From Candidatus Hermodarchaeota archaeon (GTDB taxonomy: Archaea; Asgardarchaeota; Lokiarchaeia; Sigyniarchaeales; SOKP01), in assembly GCA_048885525.1 (NCBI GenBank), contig JBHLLP010000014.1:17719-81718 (forward strand): DNA of 64,000 nt. Reading direction: 5' to 3'. The notes under the pieces are model-generated. The model was not told the DNA's origin, ran no database searches, and saw only the letters and a program-made list of their open reading frames with translations. The translations under genes and the position numbers were made by a program. This document shows positions 7,508 through 14,031 of this stretch, piece by piece. Each line of letters begins with the position of its first letter. Positions within the stretch are counted from its first letter, which is position 1.

Positions 7508-10500
7508 TTGACTTATATTAAAAAAATTTCTATGAGTGGTTTCAAATCTTTTGGAGATCGAACTGTAACTATCAGACTTTCAAGTGGATTCACATGTATC
7601 GTGGGACCGAATGGGGCTGGTAAATCTAATATAATAGATGCTTTATGTTTCTCGCTTGGTAGGTTAAGCAAAAAAACTATGAGAGCAAAAAGTTTAGAGG
7701 ATCTTATCTTTGCTGGTTCACGAGGGAAAAATCCTTCTCAAAGAGCTTCAGTTACATTATTTTTTGATAATTCTGATAATGTTTTTCCTGGAGGAACAGA
7801 TGATTTTCAGATTACTCGTGTTATAAAAAGAGGCGGAGGAGGCGGATATAAAATGAATGGAAAGAAAGTCACCCGCCAGCAAATACTTAACGCTTTAGCA
7901 GCAGCAAATATTGATCCTGATGGTAGTAATCAATTTGTATTACAAGGAAAGATTGTTGAATTAACACATATGAATCCTGAAGATCGCAGGAGGTTCATTG
8001 AGGAGTTAATAGGACTTCAAAAATATGATGAAATGAAGGATGCTACTTTAAAGGAATTAGAAAAAGCAGAAAGAGATTTAGGACAGTTTGAAGCGATCTT
8101 TAAAGAAGTATCTGCTCAACTGAAAAAGGTTGAAAAAGAAAAAAATGACGCTTTAGCTTGGAAAGAATTAGATGATCAAATAAATTATCTAAACTCGCAG
8201 TTAATAGCTCTAAAGATTTCAAAATTACGAGAAGAAGAAGAAGAACTAGAAAAAAAAATCGAAATATCTTCAAAAATCGTTGAAGAATTGCAAGAAAAAA
8301 TAAATCGTCAAGAAGATGTCTTAAAACAAGAATCTCTCGTTATGGATAATATCCAAAAAACTATTACTGATAAAGAAAAAGAAAGAGAAGAAATAACTGA
8401 AAATATAACTCAAATTAAAACACAAATATCTTCAAGTCAAACCACATTAAATCTGGATAATAAATCAATCGATAAACTAACAAAAGAAATTGAATCTCTA
8501 GAAAGTCAACAAATGAAACTTGAAGATGAGCAAACTTTTGATTCATTAATAGAAAGTGTGTTAAATGTAATTTTAGAATATGAGAATTATATTGAAGAAG
8601 CTAAAAAGGAAATTGAAAAAAGACAACAAAACCAAGCTGAATTAGACCTTAAAATAAAAAATAATGAAGATGAAAAATCTATTTTTAAAGCAGAAATATC
8701 CAAGATACAACAAAATGTTTCTTCTAATAATGCTCAAATTAAGATGCTTAGAGGAACTATTAAAAAAAATGAAGAAAAAAAGGAAAAATTAGAAATTGAA
8801 TTACAGAGATTGAAAAAAGATGCTGAAAGCATCGATGAGGCCATTGAAGCGACTAAACAAGCAGAATCTGAAATAAGGAATAAAATTAACGATTTAAATA
8901 GTAAAATTTCTAAAGAAAATCAAAATCAAAAAGATCTAGAGAATAATATTAACACTCTCCAAATAGAGAAAAACCAACTAAATTCTAAATCAGCAAATTT
9001 TCAAGCTACTTTATCGTCTTTAAGTACAGAAATTAAAATGAATCAAGGAAACATACAAGAATTAGATGAAAAGAAAAATCTTATAAAGAAAAAGATTACT
9101 GAATTAAGTCAAGGTCAGGACTCTGAAAAAGCAGTGAAAGAATTATTGAGTCAAAATGAAACCATAAACAAAGAATTGAGTGAATTAAGAACAAAATTAA
9201 AGCAAGAAAATTCAGTATATAGAAAAAATGAACAAGATCTAGAACTAATTAAAATGAAAAAATATTCTTGCGAATCAGAAATCAATGATAATAATGCAAA
9301 GATTGATAATATTAATACAGAACTAAAAATTCTTACAAAAGAATTAACAAATTTGGATCGAGAGAAGAATAAATTAGAAATACTAGCAGATACATCAAAT
9401 AAAAGTCTTACAAATATTACTGAGTCAACTGAAAAATTATTAATTAAGAAGGAGAATGTACAAAGACGTTTAGAAGATCTTTCCCAACAAAAAGAAAATT
9501 TGACAAAAAAAATTGAATCTTCTGAGGAAGAATACGAGAAGGATACAAAAGATGTTACGGGAATTCTCCAAATTTTAAATATGCTTACCCAGAATATTAA
9601 TATCTCAGTTGAATCTATTAAAAGTAATATACAACAATCAAACGCAGAGGCAATTGAATCATCCGCAGAAGATTTTAAAAAATTCATTTTAGATATCATA
9701 GATATTATGAAAACAGTTGAGGATATTGGCGTTGATGAGGAAAAACATGCTGAAATGACAGAAATGATTAACTCTATAATGCAAACTTTAAAAATGTTTA
9801 CAGATAATGCTGATGAAACCATTAATCAATTAATCGATAGAGTAAAAGAATCAGCAGACATTGAAGTACAAAGTTCAACCGCTACATTTGATAGTTTTGT
9901 TCAAGACTTAATGGAAATTCTTGAAAATGTATATCTTTCGTTAAGAAAGCTAACTATGTCTAAAAGTCAGGAACTATACAAACAATTGGAAGAAATATCG
10001 GAGACTATCAAATCCCAAACAGACGATTTTAACCAAAATGAGAAACAATTAACTGAAAGTAATATCCAAGAAAAACACTTATCAGAAAACCTTTCAACTT
10101 ATGAAAAAAGACTTAATGAAATTAATAAAAGAAATACTGAGATAAATGAAAGAATTAAAAAAGGAGAACAAGAAATTAAGGAAAGGGAGAAAATAATTAA
10201 TACCAGACAATCAGAAACTAGTAACTTTGATATCGAAATTGAAAAACTAAAAAAACTTAAAGACACATATTGGGACAATCTCTCTACAATTCAAGAAGAT
10301 ATTGATAAAAAGCAAAACGAATTAGAAAATCTGAGAGAAAAATTACAGGAATTGCACGGAATTCAAAATTTATTTGAGAATATTGCTGAAATTGATGATA
10401 ATGTAGAAAAATTAAATAAAATTATTTTGGAAAAGAAAAATTTAATCGTAAATACAGAAGAAAATATTAAAAAAATTCAAGAAGAACAAAATTCATTACA

Positions 10501-11959
10501 AAAAAATATTGATGAACTTGTTCTAAAAAAAGAGAACTACTGGGAAATAACAGAGAATTTACGAAAACAGATAGATGATGAGAACAAAACCTTGGAAGAT
10601 ACTATGGATCGCTTAAGAGCGCTTGAAAACGTAATGAGGATAATTGATTCTATTGAAGATATTAAAAAAGAAAATAATGATGCTAAAAATAATGTTCAAA
10701 CTTGTTTAAATGAAATAGAAGGATTGAAAACCCAGATTGAAGAAATCCAAAAAAATGTGAATAAAAAACAAGAAGTAATAGATTCTTTAAGAATTCAGAA
10801 AACAGAAGAGTTAGAATCACAAAAGGTAGCCCAAAAGAATTTAAACAAATTGAATAAAGATTTGCAGAAATCTCAAGGGAAGTTGAATGAGTTAAATAAA
10901 AATAAAGAAAGAGAACAAAAAATTATTGGGCTGCATCAAGAGATAAAAGATATTGAAGAACAGATTGAATTAATAACAAAAGAATTAAGCAATTTTAAAG
11001 AAAAATTGGATAGTGAAAATGAAAAGAAGAATGAAAAACAAAAAGAGATTGATAAGTTTATACAAGAAAAAGATGAATCATGGAAAAAACAAAAACAATA
11101 TCAGAAAGTTATAACTGACTTAAAATCAGATTTATCTATGGAGAATTCTAAAATCAACAATTTTGAATCAAAAAAAATAATGTGTACTGATCAAATTGAA
11201 ACTTTGTTTGAGCGTTCTAAAGAATATGGGTCATTACCTCCTATAAATGAAGGGCTTTCAGAAGCAGAATTACAGGCAGATATAGTAGAAAAAACACAGA
11301 AGAAAAAAACCCTAGAACCTGTGAATTTAAAAGCAATTGAACAATATGATACTGTAAAAGAAAGATTTGATGAGATAGATATGAGACGGCAAACAATACA
11401 AAGAGAAAGAAAATCAATTTTAGATGCTATTGATAAGATTGAACTAGAAAAAACAAGAACATTCATGAAAGCATATCATGAGATTAATAGAGAGTTTAGT
11501 AGAATTTTTCAAAAACTTAGTCCTGGTGGTTCAGCGAAAATGATTTTAGATAGACCAGATAAGCCATTCGAAGGGGGTATTAGTATAGAAGCAAGACCAA
11601 GAGGTAAAAAAATTAGCTCATTAGAAATATTAAGTGGCGGTGAAAAAACATTAGTAGCATTATCTTTCATATTTGCTGTTCAAGAATTTTATCCTGCTCC
11701 ATTTTATGTAATGGACGAAATTGATGCTGCTTTAGATGGTCCAAATGTACATCGCGTTTCCATGGTTATAAAAGAATTTGCTTCACAAGCTCAATTTATG
11801 GTGATTAGCCACCGTGAGGAAAATATAGTAAATGCAGATAGAATTTATGGAGTATCAATGCAACAAAGTGGAATAACTGATATTTTTAGCGTTGATTTAG
11901 AAGAAGAGGCAAAAAGAATTCTTGAAATTGAAGATGTCGAACCTACAATAACAGAATAA
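7508..11959 (+). CDS. smc: SMC chromosome segregation ATPase, elongated, with atypical central apex
   Basis: GFKSF, Walker A GPNGAGKSN, Q-loop VLQG, signature LSGGEK, Walker B/D-loop VMDEIDAALD, H-loop ISH; long coiled coils; GGAG SD before TTG. Confidence 0.95.
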   Translation: MTYIKKISMSGFKSFGDRTVTIRLSSGFTCIVGPNGAGKSNIIDALCFSLGRLSKKTMRAKSLEDLIFAGSRGKNPSQRASVTLFFDNSDNVFPGGTDDFQITRVIKRGGGGGYKMNGKKVTRQQILNALAAANIDPDGSNQFVLQGKIVELTHMNPEDRRRFIEELIGLQKYDEMKDATLKELEKAERDLGQFEAIFKEVSAQLKKVEKEKNDALAWKELDDQINYLNSQLIALKISKLREEEEELEKKIEISSKIVEELQEKINRQEDVLKQESLVMDNIQKTITDKEKEREEITENITQIKTQISSSQTTLNLDNKSIDKLTKEIESLESQQMKLEDEQTFDSLIESVLNVILEYENYIEEAKKEIEKRQQNQAELDLKIKNNEDEKSIFKAEISKIQQNVSSNNAQIKMLRGTIKKNEEKKEKLEIELQRLKKDAESIDEAIEATKQAESEIRNKINDLNSKISKENQNQKDLENNINTLQIEKNQLNSKSANFQATLSSLSTEIKMNQGNIQELDEKKNLIKKKITELSQGQDSEKAVKELLSQNETINKELSELRTKLKQENSVYRKNEQDLELIKMKKYSCESEINDNNAKIDNINTELKILTKELTNLDREKNKLEILADTSNKSLTNITESTEKLLIKKENVQRRLEDLSQQKENLTKKIESSEEEYEKDTKDVTGILQILNMLTQNINISVESIKSNIQQSNAEAIESSAEDFKKFILDIIDIMKTVEDIGVDEEKHAEMTEMINSIMQTLKMFTDNADETINQLIDRVKESADIEVQSSTATFDSFVQDLMEILENVYLSLRKLTMSKSQELYKQLEEISETIKSQTDDFNQNEKQLTESNIQEKHLSENLSTYEKRLNEINKRNTEINERIKKGEQEIKEREKIINTRQSETSNFDIEIEKLKKLKDTYWDNLSTIQEDIDKKQNELENLREKLQELHGIQNLFENIAEIDDNVEKLNKIILEKKNLIVNTEENIKKIQEEQNSLQKNIDELVLKKENYWEITENLRKQIDDENKTLEDTMDRLRALENVMRIIDSIEDIKKENNDAKNNVQTCLNEIEGLKTQIEEIQKNVNKKQEVIDSLRIQKTEELESQKVAQKNLNKLNKDLQKSQGKLNELNKNKEREQKIIGLHQEIKDIEEQIELITKELSNFKEKLDSENEKKNEKQKEIDKFIQEKDESWKKQKQYQKVITDLKSDLSMENSKINNFESKKIMCTDQIETLFERSKEYGSLPPINEGLSEAELQADIVEKTQKKKTLEPVNLKAIEQYDTVKERFDEIDMRRQTIQRERKSILDAIDKIELEKTRTFMKAYHEINREFSRIFQKLSPGGSAKMILDRPDKPFEGGISIEARPRGKKISSLEILSGGEKTLVALSFIFAVQEFYPAPFYVMDEIDAALDGPNVHRVSMVIKEFASQAQFMVISHREENIVNADRIYGVSMQQSGITDIFSVDLEEEAKRILEIEDVEPTITE
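9551..9960 (+). repeat. tandem ~71-aa protein repeat at the SMC apex
   Basis: aa682 DVTGILQILNMLTQN..QSNAEAIESSAEDFKKFILDIIDIMKTV aligns without gaps to aa753 MINSIMQTLKMFTDN..ESADIEVQSSTATFDSFVQDLMEILENV. Confidence 0.75.
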
Positions 11960-11984: not shown

Positions 11985-12998
11985 ATGATTTCAAAAAATG
12001 GAGAAGACACGGTAAAAAAATATAATTTTAATGAATGGACTGTAAAACTCTTAAAGGAATTTGCATCAAAAAATAATATTAAAATTCCAACTAAGGCAAA
12101 AAAAAGAGATATTGTTGAATTGCTTGAAAACGTTACATCTCATCCCGACTTTATCGATCGATCTCAAGAAGAACAAACAGAAGAACCTGAAATAGAATTA
12201 GTTGCTGAGTTTGATGAAGAAGATGAGGATCTTGCATTATTGCGAAAAGAAAAAACTGAATTGAAATTTTGGCAAAAACCACCATTTTCAAGTCTTTTAG
12301 ATACTGAATTAGCAAAAGAATCCGAAATTGCTTTTTACGATTTGTCAAAATTAGTAGATAGCTTTTTTGATAATATGCTTCATGAAGATTTAATTAACTA
12401 TAAAATTTCTGGAATAGCACTTAAAACATCTGCATCTCTACATCATTACAAAATCTCAAGTATAATTAAAGAAGAGGAACAAATTCAACGAAGAGAAGAA
12501 TTAGAAAAATTCAGACAAAGCCATTCTAGATCAATTCCAAAAGCTTTGCCTCAGCCAATTTCCCCTAAAATGCAAATTGCTACTAAGGATGAATTATTTG
12601 ATGCTATGAGATCAGCGATTATTGAAGTAATGCAAAATAAAGAAAAGTTAAAAAGAAGGAGAATGCGAAGAGAAGAACTTAAAGAACAAAGGATCCAAAT
12701 GAGATCCAAAGCGCAATTACCAAAAGAACTCTTAAAACATATTAGTGGTAAAGAACAGACTGTTGAAGAATTGCATGAATCATGGTATAATCGAATAAAA
12801 GCTACAATCAATTTAAACAATAAACAAACAAGTATTTTTGATTTAATGAATATTATTAAAAACGAAGAGGAAAGTGGTATAGGTCGTAAATTTTCGTTAG
12901 TACGTATGTTTTTAGCTTTACTATTCTTATCTACTGGAAATAAATTAAATTTATCTCAAGAGGAAGATTTTCAAGATATTTTAGTTGATACTAGTTAA
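11985..12998 (+). CDS. scpA: ScpA kleisin with an extra N-terminal HEH/SAP-like domain
   Basis: Follows smc; DLSKLVDSF..SGIALKTSA..YK N-domain; C-terminal VRMFLALLFL...LSQEEDFQDI winged helix. Confidence 0.85.
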   Translation: MISKNGEDTVKKYNFNEWTVKLLKEFASKNNIKIPTKAKKRDIVELLENVTSHPDFIDRSQEEQTEEPEIELVAEFDEEDEDLALLRKEKTELKFWQKPPFSSLLDTELAKESEIAFYDLSKLVDSFFDNMLHEDLINYKISGIALKTSASLHHYKISSIIKEEEQIQRREELEKFRQSHSRSIPKALPQPISPKMQIATKDELFDAMRSAIIEVMQNKEKLKRRRMRREELKEQRIQMRSKAQLPKELLKHISGKEQTVEELHESWYNRIKATINLNNKQTSIFDLMNIIKNEEESGIGRKFSLVRMFLALLFLSTGNKLNLSQEEDFQDILVDTS

Positions 12999-13038: not shown

Positions 13039-14031
13039 TTGGAAGAAAATCCAGATAAAGAAAATAATGAGGAAATAGAAGAAAATCCTGACAATATTTT
13101 TGATGAAGAAGAAAATGAACTTCTTGATGAAGAAATTAAAGATGTGGAAACATTAACTGAAATAGAATCTAAAGAAGTAGATTTAGATGATTCAATGAAA
13201 GAAATTGAAGGTGAATTCATTGAACAACTAGAAACAAAATCAGAAGATATTGAAAAACTTGAATTAGTTGAAGAATTCGATCAAGAATCAGAAGCAATCC
13301 TAATTGAAGAATCTATTGATGTGCAAAGGCTTGAAGATGCAAACAATATAATTAAAAATACGTCAGAAAGTACGATTATCCATGAAAAAGCTTTAGAACT
13401 TGATGAAAAAGCTCTTCATCGAAATTTTATTGAGGCAGCCCTCTATGCTGCTGGAGGACCTTTAACAATAGAAGAGTTATCCAATAAATTAGAATTTCCT
13501 AAAAAGGAAGTAGAAACTCTAGTAAATGAATTAGCTTTTGATTATTTAGAGCGTACTACATCACTAATTATTGCGCAAATTGGAGATAGATATCAAATGC
13601 AGATTAGACCTGAATACACTGAAAAAGTTTCAAAATTTGCGAAAGGAGGGGCAATAGCAGAGAGGCATTTAAGAACTTTGACTATTATCGCTTTAAAGCA
13701 ACCAATCTTAAAATCAATGGTTATAAAATTAAGAGGTACTGGAGCATATGAACATATAAAGTACCTTTTAGATAATGAATTTATAAACGCTGTAAAAAAA
13801 GGTAGATCTCACGAATTAACTACTTCAGATAAGTATGCAGAAATGTTTGGATTGCCAAAAGATATAAGATTGATGAAACAAGCTATGATCAATCAATTAG
13901 GAATTGGAGAAGGAGGAGAAATTAAGGTTTCAGGTGAAACCGAAGAAGTGGAAAAAGTCGAAGATTCAATTGAAATCGAAGAAGAAAATCAAGTTGAACC
14001 TATGAATGAAAATGATGAGGTAGAAGAATAA
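13039..14031 (+). CDS. scpB: ScpB (KITE) subunit with long acidic N-terminal extension
   Basis: IEAALYAAGGPL, LRTLTIIALKQPI..IKLRG..AYEHIKYL, TSDKYAEMFGL. Confidence 0.92.
   Translation: MEENPDKENNEEIEENPDNIFDEEENELLDEEIKDVETLTEIESKEVDLDDSMKEIEGEFIEQLETKSEDIEKLELVEEFDQESEAILIEESIDVQRLEDANNIIKNTSESTIIHEKALELDEKALHRNFIEAALYAAGGPLTIEELSNKLEFPKKEVETLVNELAFDYLERTTSLIIAQIGDRYQMQIRPEYTEKVSKFAKGGAIAERHLRTLTIIALKQPILKSMVIKLRGTGAYEHIKYLLDNEFINAVKKGRSHELTTSDKYAEMFGLPKDIRLMKQAMINQLGIGEGGEIKVSGETEEVEKVEDSIEIEEENQVEPMNENDEVEE

Follow-up and report, generated by a model that had tools for sequence, protein, structure and literature searches.

The smc gene and its product

The window analysed here is a stretch of 64,000 nucleotides (nt) from a Candidatus Hermodarchaeota archaeon (contig JBHLLP010000014.1 of assembly GCA_048885525.1), and the subject of this report is its smc gene, which occupies positions 7508..11959 of the forward strand. 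The gene starts with TTG and encodes a protein of 1483 amino acids (aa) with SMC heads and long helical arms, but without a hinge domain. The N-terminal Walker A head was matched by PF02463 at aa 3-138 with an E value of 8e-34, and the Walker A motif GPNGAGKS was found in the translation, as were the ABC signature LSGGEK and the Walker B motif DEIDAALD of the C-terminal head. The protein passed the equivalog cut-off of TIGR02168 (609.4 bits; cut-off 567.35) and failed that of the archaeal-type model TIGR02169 (609.7 bits; cut-off 729.4), the alignments to the two models covering aa 969-1464. The hinge family PF06470 gave no match in the whole protein, nor in aa 640-930 at E values up to 10, and it was also missing from a 42%-identical long-form relative (L019); the hinges of canonical neighbouring Smc proteins scored 107-112 bits. 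In total, 119 orthologs of 1469-1487 aa, with identities down to 67%, were collected.

Rad50 or SbcC was considered as another identity for this protein and was rejected. There is no Cys in aa 684-816, so that a CxxC zinc hook is lacking, and the Rad50 models reached only 100-108 bits against cut-offs of 700-1087.

Two genes follow smc on the same strand. The first (11985..12998) encodes a scpA-like kleisin of 337 aa, whose C-terminus showed a weak PF02616 match (E 0.0012) that falls below the Pfam cut-off. The second is scpB (13039..14031), which encodes a kite subunit of 330 aa with a PF04079 match of 112 bits at aa 130-274. The gene order smc-scpA-like-scpB forms an operon. Judged by its heads, its arm and its partners, the 1483-aa protein is the Smc subunit of a Smc-ScpAB-type complex, although a hinge is not found in it.

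A 90-aa period in the C-terminal arm

The initial annotation of this DNA had noticed, from the letters alone, that a motif ending in Trp or Leu recurs every 270 nt in the C-terminal arm and that another motif recurs every 97-98 aa in the N-terminal arm. All eight coordinates given for these motifs were found to be in frame within the open reading frame (ORF) 7508-11959. The codons at 10271, 10541, and 11081 encode Trp922, Trp1012, and Trp1192, the codon at 10811 encodes Leu1102, and the spacing is exactly 270 nt. The recurrence at 90 aa thus stands. The motif itself needed an amendment: a Lys at the seventh position, as originally written, fits one copy only, and a Lys at the eighth position fits all four. 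In the amended form, I[DE].[LF]...K...[WL], a regular-expression search returned exactly four matches in the whole protein, at aa 911, 1001, 1091, and 1181, compared with an expectation of 0.04 in shuffled arms for this motif, which was defined post hoc. The first copy, IEKLKKLKDTYW (aa 911-922), lies at 10238..10273, and copies 2-4 lie at 10508-10543, 10778-10813, and 11048-11083, all on the forward strand.

The protein contains only four Trp residues, and all of them, W922, W1012, and W1192 included, are invariant among the 119 orthologs, in which position 1102 is always L, V, I, or F. This Trp lattice is partly retained in a distant relative (W923 and W1193). By arithmetic, the four lattice positions share one heptad class, which adjoins a core position as judged by hydrophobicity.

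The self-similarity of the C-terminal arm was then scored without gaps, using BLOSUM62 and the profile of the 119 orthologs. The lag of 90 aa ranked first and the lag of 180 aa second. Significance was assessed with 300 shuffles in which profile columns were permuted only within their heptad class, so that heptad class and composition were both preserved. The lag of 90 aa gave a z-score (z) of 5.0, which was reached by 1 of the 300 shuffles, and its best 80-aa window gave a z of 5.9, which was reached by none. Modules named U1 (aa 865-954), U2 (955-1044), U3 (1045-1134), and U4 (1135-1224) span 10100..11179 on the forward strand with a period of exactly 90 aa. The U1-U2 pair scored a z of 3.9 and the U3-U4 pair a z of 2.7. 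On the 90-aa lattice all six pairs of units are 17-24% identical, as against 6-19% on the heptad-equivalent lattices of 83 or 97 aa. Moreover, tracking of the 3.5-residue hydrophobic phase revealed register shifts of -1 at approximately aa 951, 1041, and 1136. The C strand loses one residue per unit; therefore, each C unit corresponds to 13 heptads minus one residue, that is, 90 aa.

A 97/98-aa period and helix breaks in the N-terminal arm

The N-terminal arm contains modules A (aa 246-343), B (344-441), C (442-538), and D (539-636), which span 8243..9415 on the forward strand with periods of 98, 98, and 97 aa. The recurrence noticed earlier was recovered as [SD][SN]...[QET][IL][KN][MIL] at four sites, aa 308, 405, 503, and 600, with spacings of 97, 98, and 97. 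In the self-similarity analysis the lag of 195 aa was at the top, and lags of 97 and 98 alternated locally. The lag of 195 gave a z of 4.3 and the best lag-98 window a z of 4.8, each reached by 0 of 300 shuffles. Among the unit pairs, B-C scored a z of 5.0, C-D 3.8, A-C 3.6, and A-B 2.3. An ungapped comparison of modules B and C over 97 residues gave 28% identity, to which surface positions contribute.

The helix of this arm is interrupted by three short breaks, hereafter called knuckles, all on the forward strand. Knuckle 1 (aa 335-343; 8510..8536), knuckle 2 (aa 436-441, KKDAES; 8813..8830), and knuckle 3 (aa 535-538, QGQD; 9110..9121) were each assigned as breaks by DSSP in an AlphaFold2 model, knuckle 2 with a predicted local distance difference test (pLDDT) score below 50. 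The two breaks read by eye in the initial annotation, LKKDAES and LSQGQDS, are therefore both breaks in the predicted structure, and knuckle 1 is an addition to them. The knuckles follow a motif of their own, L..[GD]..[ST] and then [FIV][DE], which is itself repeated and is kept in the 42%-identical relative. The heptad register shifts by -1 at approximately aa 338 (knuckle 1) and aa 533 (knuckle 3), and it is unchanged across knuckle 2, as expected of a 7-residue insert. Since the N strand loses one residue at each of the two former places, two N units amount to 28 heptads minus one residue, or 195 aa, and these shifts in hydrophobic phase explain the alternation of 97 and 98 along the arm. 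The N period of 97-98 aa thus equals the C period of 90 aa plus the looped-out knuckle residues.

Controls for the repeat signal

The lack of an internal repeat beyond the heptad background had been named as a refutation of the modular arm, and both arms exceeded the heptad-preserving shuffles (z 4.3-5.9). When 16 canonical Asgard Smc proteins were combined into a profile, only flat heptad families appeared, with no special lag. In L019, the top lags of the C-terminal arm were 90, 270, and 180, and that of the N-terminal arm was 195. At the DNA level, tandem repeats were limited to short low-complexity runs; the duplications are therefore old.

Several other comparisons were of less use. BLAST of the whole protein against itself returned the identity match only. 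Gapped alignments of units cut on control lattices slid onto the true repeat and made a poor control, and ungapped heptad-preserving shuffles were used instead. Compared with canonical arms, the N-terminal head-proximal segment alone showed a specific resemblance and the rest was heptad background, which makes the course of the global hhalign alignment along the arms arbitrary.

A predicted hairpin with a helical tip in place of the hinge

The AlphaFold2 model covers aa 165-1300, was built from 119 sequences, and has a mean pLDDT of 77. It is almost wholly helical, and its chain folds back only once, in a loop at aa 740-748 (nt 9725-9751); a single-residue kink lies at aa 951. The loop lies within a conserved helical tip (aa 684-816; 9557..9955, forward strand), which takes the place of the hinge. 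Column conservation was 0.88-0.95 at aa 691-720 and aa 781-840, and aa 742 in the tip loop is the only indel hot spot of the family. From knuckle 3 to the tip loop there is an N helix of 201 aa (539-739), and the C helix between the loop and the kink measures 202 aa (749-950). The two N helices that come next, 93 and 92 aa long, extend to the C-strand register shifts at approximately aa 1041 and aa 1136. These matching lengths, counted from the apex loop, suggest one long hairpin in which each N knuckle faces a discontinuity of the C strand. With a heptad signal throughout, a single fold-back loop, and equal flanking helices, the arm is predicted to be a long intramolecular antiparallel coiled coil.

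From the heads to the fold-back loop, the arm measures approximately 570 aa on the N strand and 540 aa on the C strand. The initial annotation had regarded the arms as unusually long, and they are: as far as the conserved tip, the N strand has approximately 515 aa and the C strand 475 aa, compared with approximately 340 aa in canonical Smc. A homodimer prediction with two copies of the tip (aa 645-860) gave a score of 0.00, with no controls run, and counts for neither side.

The tip profile also matched other proteins. The N-termini of database proteins of approximately 920-1180 aa (P0141-P0157) matched it with E values of 1e-17 to 1e-6. They carry long Lys-rich tails, their starts are devoid of the SMC N-terminal head motif, and the three scanned against Pfam gave no match. 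They may represent a tip-like helical domain reused outside SMC, or else a coiled-coil artefact. Another database ORF of 1094 aa (P0123) starts inside the tip and extends approximately 300 aa beyond the normal C-terminus of Smc; its tail is Trp-rich with a 29/87-residue period, and the ORF probably results from a fused or chimeric gene call.

Two natural length classes one step apart

When a profile of the tip region was searched against 1.84 billion representatives, a full-length SMC protein of 1296 aa was retrieved, the relatives of which form a sister clade of 1290-1304 aa. We compared the lengths of 149 full-length hinge-less relatives, taken as cluster representatives and normalised to a common start. 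If the arms change by one unit on each strand, the lengths should cluster in steps of approximately 187 aa, as had been proposed. Nine proteins were 1290-1302 aa long and 139 were 1470-1500 aa long, and the medians differed by 187.0; none of the 149 had a length of 1303-1469 aa.

An alignment of the 9 short and 12 long proteins was used to locate the difference. Every short sequence displayed exactly two large gaps, one of 97 aa in the N arm (aa 491-587) and one of 90 aa in the C arm (aa 871-960). The short class also has 5 aa fewer at the tip loop. A window-by-window scan of the offset between short and long proteins yielded -2, +94, +99, and +189 in succession, with repeat-shifted offsets as the runners-up. 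The short class retains the periodicity, with 90 and 180 as its top C-arm lags. Its N strand is broken by two knuckles and its C strand shifts register twice, at places approximately 90 aa apart, whereas the long class has three of each. The AlphaFold2 model of the short class (pLDDT 75.5) has a tip hairpin of 204 aa, which is about that of the long class.

In a tree of the heads and the head-proximal arm, the short and long hinge-less forms were united with a Shimodaira-Hasegawa-like approximate likelihood ratio test (SH-aLRT) support of 100, and the two classes were reciprocally monophyletic (support 99 and 98). An earlier tree, for which a divergent paralog served as the outgroup, left the deep branches unresolved. 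Reciprocal monophyly allows a gain and a loss equally. In the short class, the first half of the third N unit is like unit C and the second half like unit D (offset -3, then +94), a hybrid expected both of unequal crossing-over and of a tandem duplication that begins in mid-unit.

Distribution and partner genes

A search of 151 genomes from the phylum recovered the long form, with open frames of 1482-1497 aa, only from the family of the window and its sister family, and the remaining families have a canonical Smc of 1187-1234 aa. Some sister genera hold both forms, each with its own scpB (L003-L006; genomes G083, G141, G135, and G144). These genera have two complete condensin-like systems, and the genome of the window has the long one only. 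In the two-system genera, the long Smc stands beside a ScpB of approximately 280-340 aa, as measured on open frames, and the hinge-bearing Smc, of approximately 1195-1203 aa, beside a ScpB of approximately 190 aa. The ScpB of the window has approximately 130 additional N-terminal residues compared with the ScpB of approximately 190-209 aa that accompanies the canonical and short-class Smc proteins, and the N-terminus of its scpA-like neighbour showed weak HeH/Ish1-like matches. Operons of the smc-scpB type occur in both length classes, and a weak ScpA match was obtained in the window only. A 404-aa ORF beside the short-class smc had no Pfam match.

Some further observations concern other SMC genes and reading frames. 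In three genomes of one genus (G040:C25, G125:C267, and G144:C10), one TAA was flagged inside the C-terminal match of the canonical Smc. The canonical frame of G144 is uninterrupted over 1195 aa, so that the flag probably reflects a match running past the end of the gene. Another contig of the window's own genome (C1, L002:3537-7007, reverse strand) carries a further SMC-like gene, which encodes 1156 aa and is very divergent, with a weak hinge match of 27.7 bits and only 210 bits to TIGR02168; its neighbours had no family match. Inside the smc gene of the window, an antisense ORF of 223 aa (9151-9822, reverse strand) is most likely a by-product of the purine-rich, AT-rich coding strand and not a gene.

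Explanations of the periodicity and of the length step

We consider it probable that this hinge-less Lokiarchaeial Smc has a hairpin arm made of four paired tandem modules and that its length changes by whole paired modules. The first rival to be weighed is that the repeats are due to chance or to the heptad and compositional background of a Lys-, Glu-, and Asn-rich coiled coil in an AT-rich genome. Such a background is real. BLAST of arm fragments without composition correction matched any segment to any other (E 1e-7 to 1e-12), which made it unusable for significance, and lags in the same heptad phase (83, 97, 76, and 104) were raised as well. Nevertheless, only 0 or 1 of 300 heptad-class-preserving shuffles reached the observed values, the signal was missing in canonical arms of similar composition and reproduced in the 42%-identical protein, and the Trp lattice is invariant. 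On these grounds this explanation was rejected, and we regard it as extremely improbable. A periodicity that arose by convergence deserves more attention, since selection for a Trp, a helix break, and core residues of a like kind in every super-helical turn could make the units look alike with no shared duplication behind them. The excess at lag 90 peaked in the two core heptad classes and in the one adjoining them, so that a periodic structural constraint could contribute; distant units were not significantly alike (z of 0.1 for U1-U4 and 1.3-1.4 for A-D and B-D), and a repeat at the DNA level is absent. However, the clean blocks of 97 and 90 aa by which the sister clade differs are expected from the insertion or deletion of units and not from gradual convergence. 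Modules B and C resemble each other at surface positions too, and canonical Smc arms, which share the same coiled-coil geometry, show no such lag. Convergence as the whole explanation is thus unlikely in our view.

The direction of the step is less settled. The four-module arm may be ancestral, and the 1296-aa lineage may have deleted one N and one C unit. The tree permits either direction, the C/D hybrid in the short class is what unequal crossing-over would leave, and the long class is far commoner (139 representatives versus 9). The same hybrid pattern would be given by a tandem duplication with mid-unit end points, and the arms still hold internal repeats, so that earlier duplications would be needed whichever direction the last step took. 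A loss is therefore quite possible, although we lean slightly away from it. The proposal that the arm arose by duplication of a 90-aa segment plus a knuckle of approximately 7 aa is supported. The N helix is broken every 97-98 aa and the C helix only shifts register every 90 aa or so, and the classes differ by a clean 97 plus 90 aa, as that proposal predicts. Its assumption that the protein was lengthened does not follow, as a shortening is equally allowed, and its source segment could not be identified in the canonical arm.

Other points weigh against the modular hairpin itself. The identities between units are low (17-28%). The N modules and the C modules were not detectably related to each other (z 1.6; 14 of 200 shuffles reached the score), and neither were the modules to canonical arms. 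The placement of the gaps within the repeats is ambiguous by about half a module, and the N and C gaps, taken literally, are not exactly opposite. The facing of the breaks was deduced from helix lengths and not from contacts, the predicted template modelling (pTM) score was low in both AlphaFold2 models (0.32 and 0.29), and the model of the short class was built on nine sequences. Finally, with only two length classes, a single step is documented and not a series.

A working model of the arm

If the modular hairpin is correct, the four paired modules would follow a stretch next to the heads and lead up to a hairpin of approximately 200 aa at the tip. In each pair, approximately 90 helical residues of the C strand would face 97-98 residues of the N strand, of which approximately 92 would be helical and 4-9 would be looped out as the knuckle. 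One step would then be 97 + 90 = 187 aa, or approximately 13 nm of arm. A step of a whole module would keep the strand pairing and the heptad register. Since one module would be about one super-helical turn, the heads and the tip may also stay in the same rotational phase. With 3.6 residues per turn, 90 residues make 26 core-facing turns against 25 alpha-helical turns, a count that depends on the helix parameter assumed.

The invariant Trp residues lie next to the core and alternate along the rod with the N-strand motifs. The C-strand Trp lattice and the N-strand SS..[IL]K[MI] lattice may thus mark contacts, for instance from arm to arm, that recur with every turn along the same face of the rod. 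According to Diebold-Durand et al. (PMC5526789), the regions of arm-to-arm contact lie by turns on the N helix and on the C helix, and they assist the dimerisation of Smc that lacks a hinge. Taking this alternation together with that of the Trp residues and the N-strand motifs, we propose as a hypothesis that the lattice residues are rod-forming contacts, which would help a hinge-less dimer to hold together. Such a dimer would enclose a larger ring, provided that it dimerises at the hinge-less tip. In its fullest form, which we put forward only tentatively and think may well prove wrong, each module would be a full super-helical turn bearing an N patch, a Trp patch, and a knuckle, and the patches would zip the hinge-less dimer along the arm. 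Were this so, dimerisation would be spread along the arm and not seated in a hinge, and whole turns could be freely gained or dropped. The three- and four-module clades would then be a natural test of the 91-aa rule described below and of the need for a hinge in loop extrusion.

Comparison with known systems

SMC complexes fold chromosomes in all cells, and the reason for the length of their arms is an open mechanical question. To our knowledge, a periodic length rule has direct support only from engineered Bacillus subtilis Smc. The pair of sister clades described here would be a natural counterpart of that rule, being one unit apart on each strand with no intermediates, and it supports the idea that the head-to-tip phase, and not length alone, is selected. 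The pair also offers two natural proteins with predicted arm lengths of approximately 67 and 80 nm for biophysical comparison, and the hinge-less family makes the mode of dimerisation and of DNA holding a directly testable question.

The functional period of the B. subtilis Smc arm was measured as 91 aa and its super-helical period was computed as approximately 99 aa (Burmann et al. 2017, Mol Cell, PMC5344682), so that the rule of approximately 91 residues had been cited correctly in the initial annotation. The same study reported natural prokaryotic arm-length modes of 238, 341, and 515 aa. Its arms were resized by grafting, no internal sequence repeats were reported, and, because hinge alignments served as the seed of its sequence set, hinge-less forms would not have entered it. 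The natural classes appear from their sequences to obey the periodic rule, as they differ by 90 aa (C) and 97 aa (N) with no intermediate among the 149 relatives. The periodic rule by engineering and the multimodal natural arm lengths, the 515-aa mode among them, are thus already known. In the literature searched, the coverage of which was incomplete, no description of the hinge-less family or of tandem modules in SMC arms was found. Compared with that literature, the tandem modules that carry the step and the natural pair of a three-module and a four-module clade are apparently new.

The protein is like B. subtilis Smc in its heads and its ScpAB partners, and its natural step of 90/97 aa, in arms of approximately 475-515 aa, is comparable. 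It differs in that the step is carried by recognisable tandem modules and a knuckle, in a protein without a hinge. With canonical archaeal and Asgard Smc it shares the N and C heads, the head-proximal coiled coil, W218, and the adjacent scpB, whereas those proteins have a strong hinge, arms of approximately 340 aa, no lag of 90 or 97, and another pattern of heptad discontinuities. The rod of myosin II is a comparable long coiled coil, with 28- and 196-residue repeats and regularly spaced skip residues. The quasi-repeats of tropomyosin (PMC5344682) are comparable too, as their supra-heptad period is tied to the geometry of the super-helix and the removal of whole repeats, but not of fractions, is tolerated. 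Nevertheless, tropomyosin and myosin II are parallel, homodimeric, and filament-binding, whereas the arm described here is predicted to be an intramolecular antiparallel hairpin. Each change in its length would therefore need a pair of matched events at sites far apart in the gene, and the two blocks of 97 and 90 aa point to such a route by which an antiparallel coiled coil may change its length.

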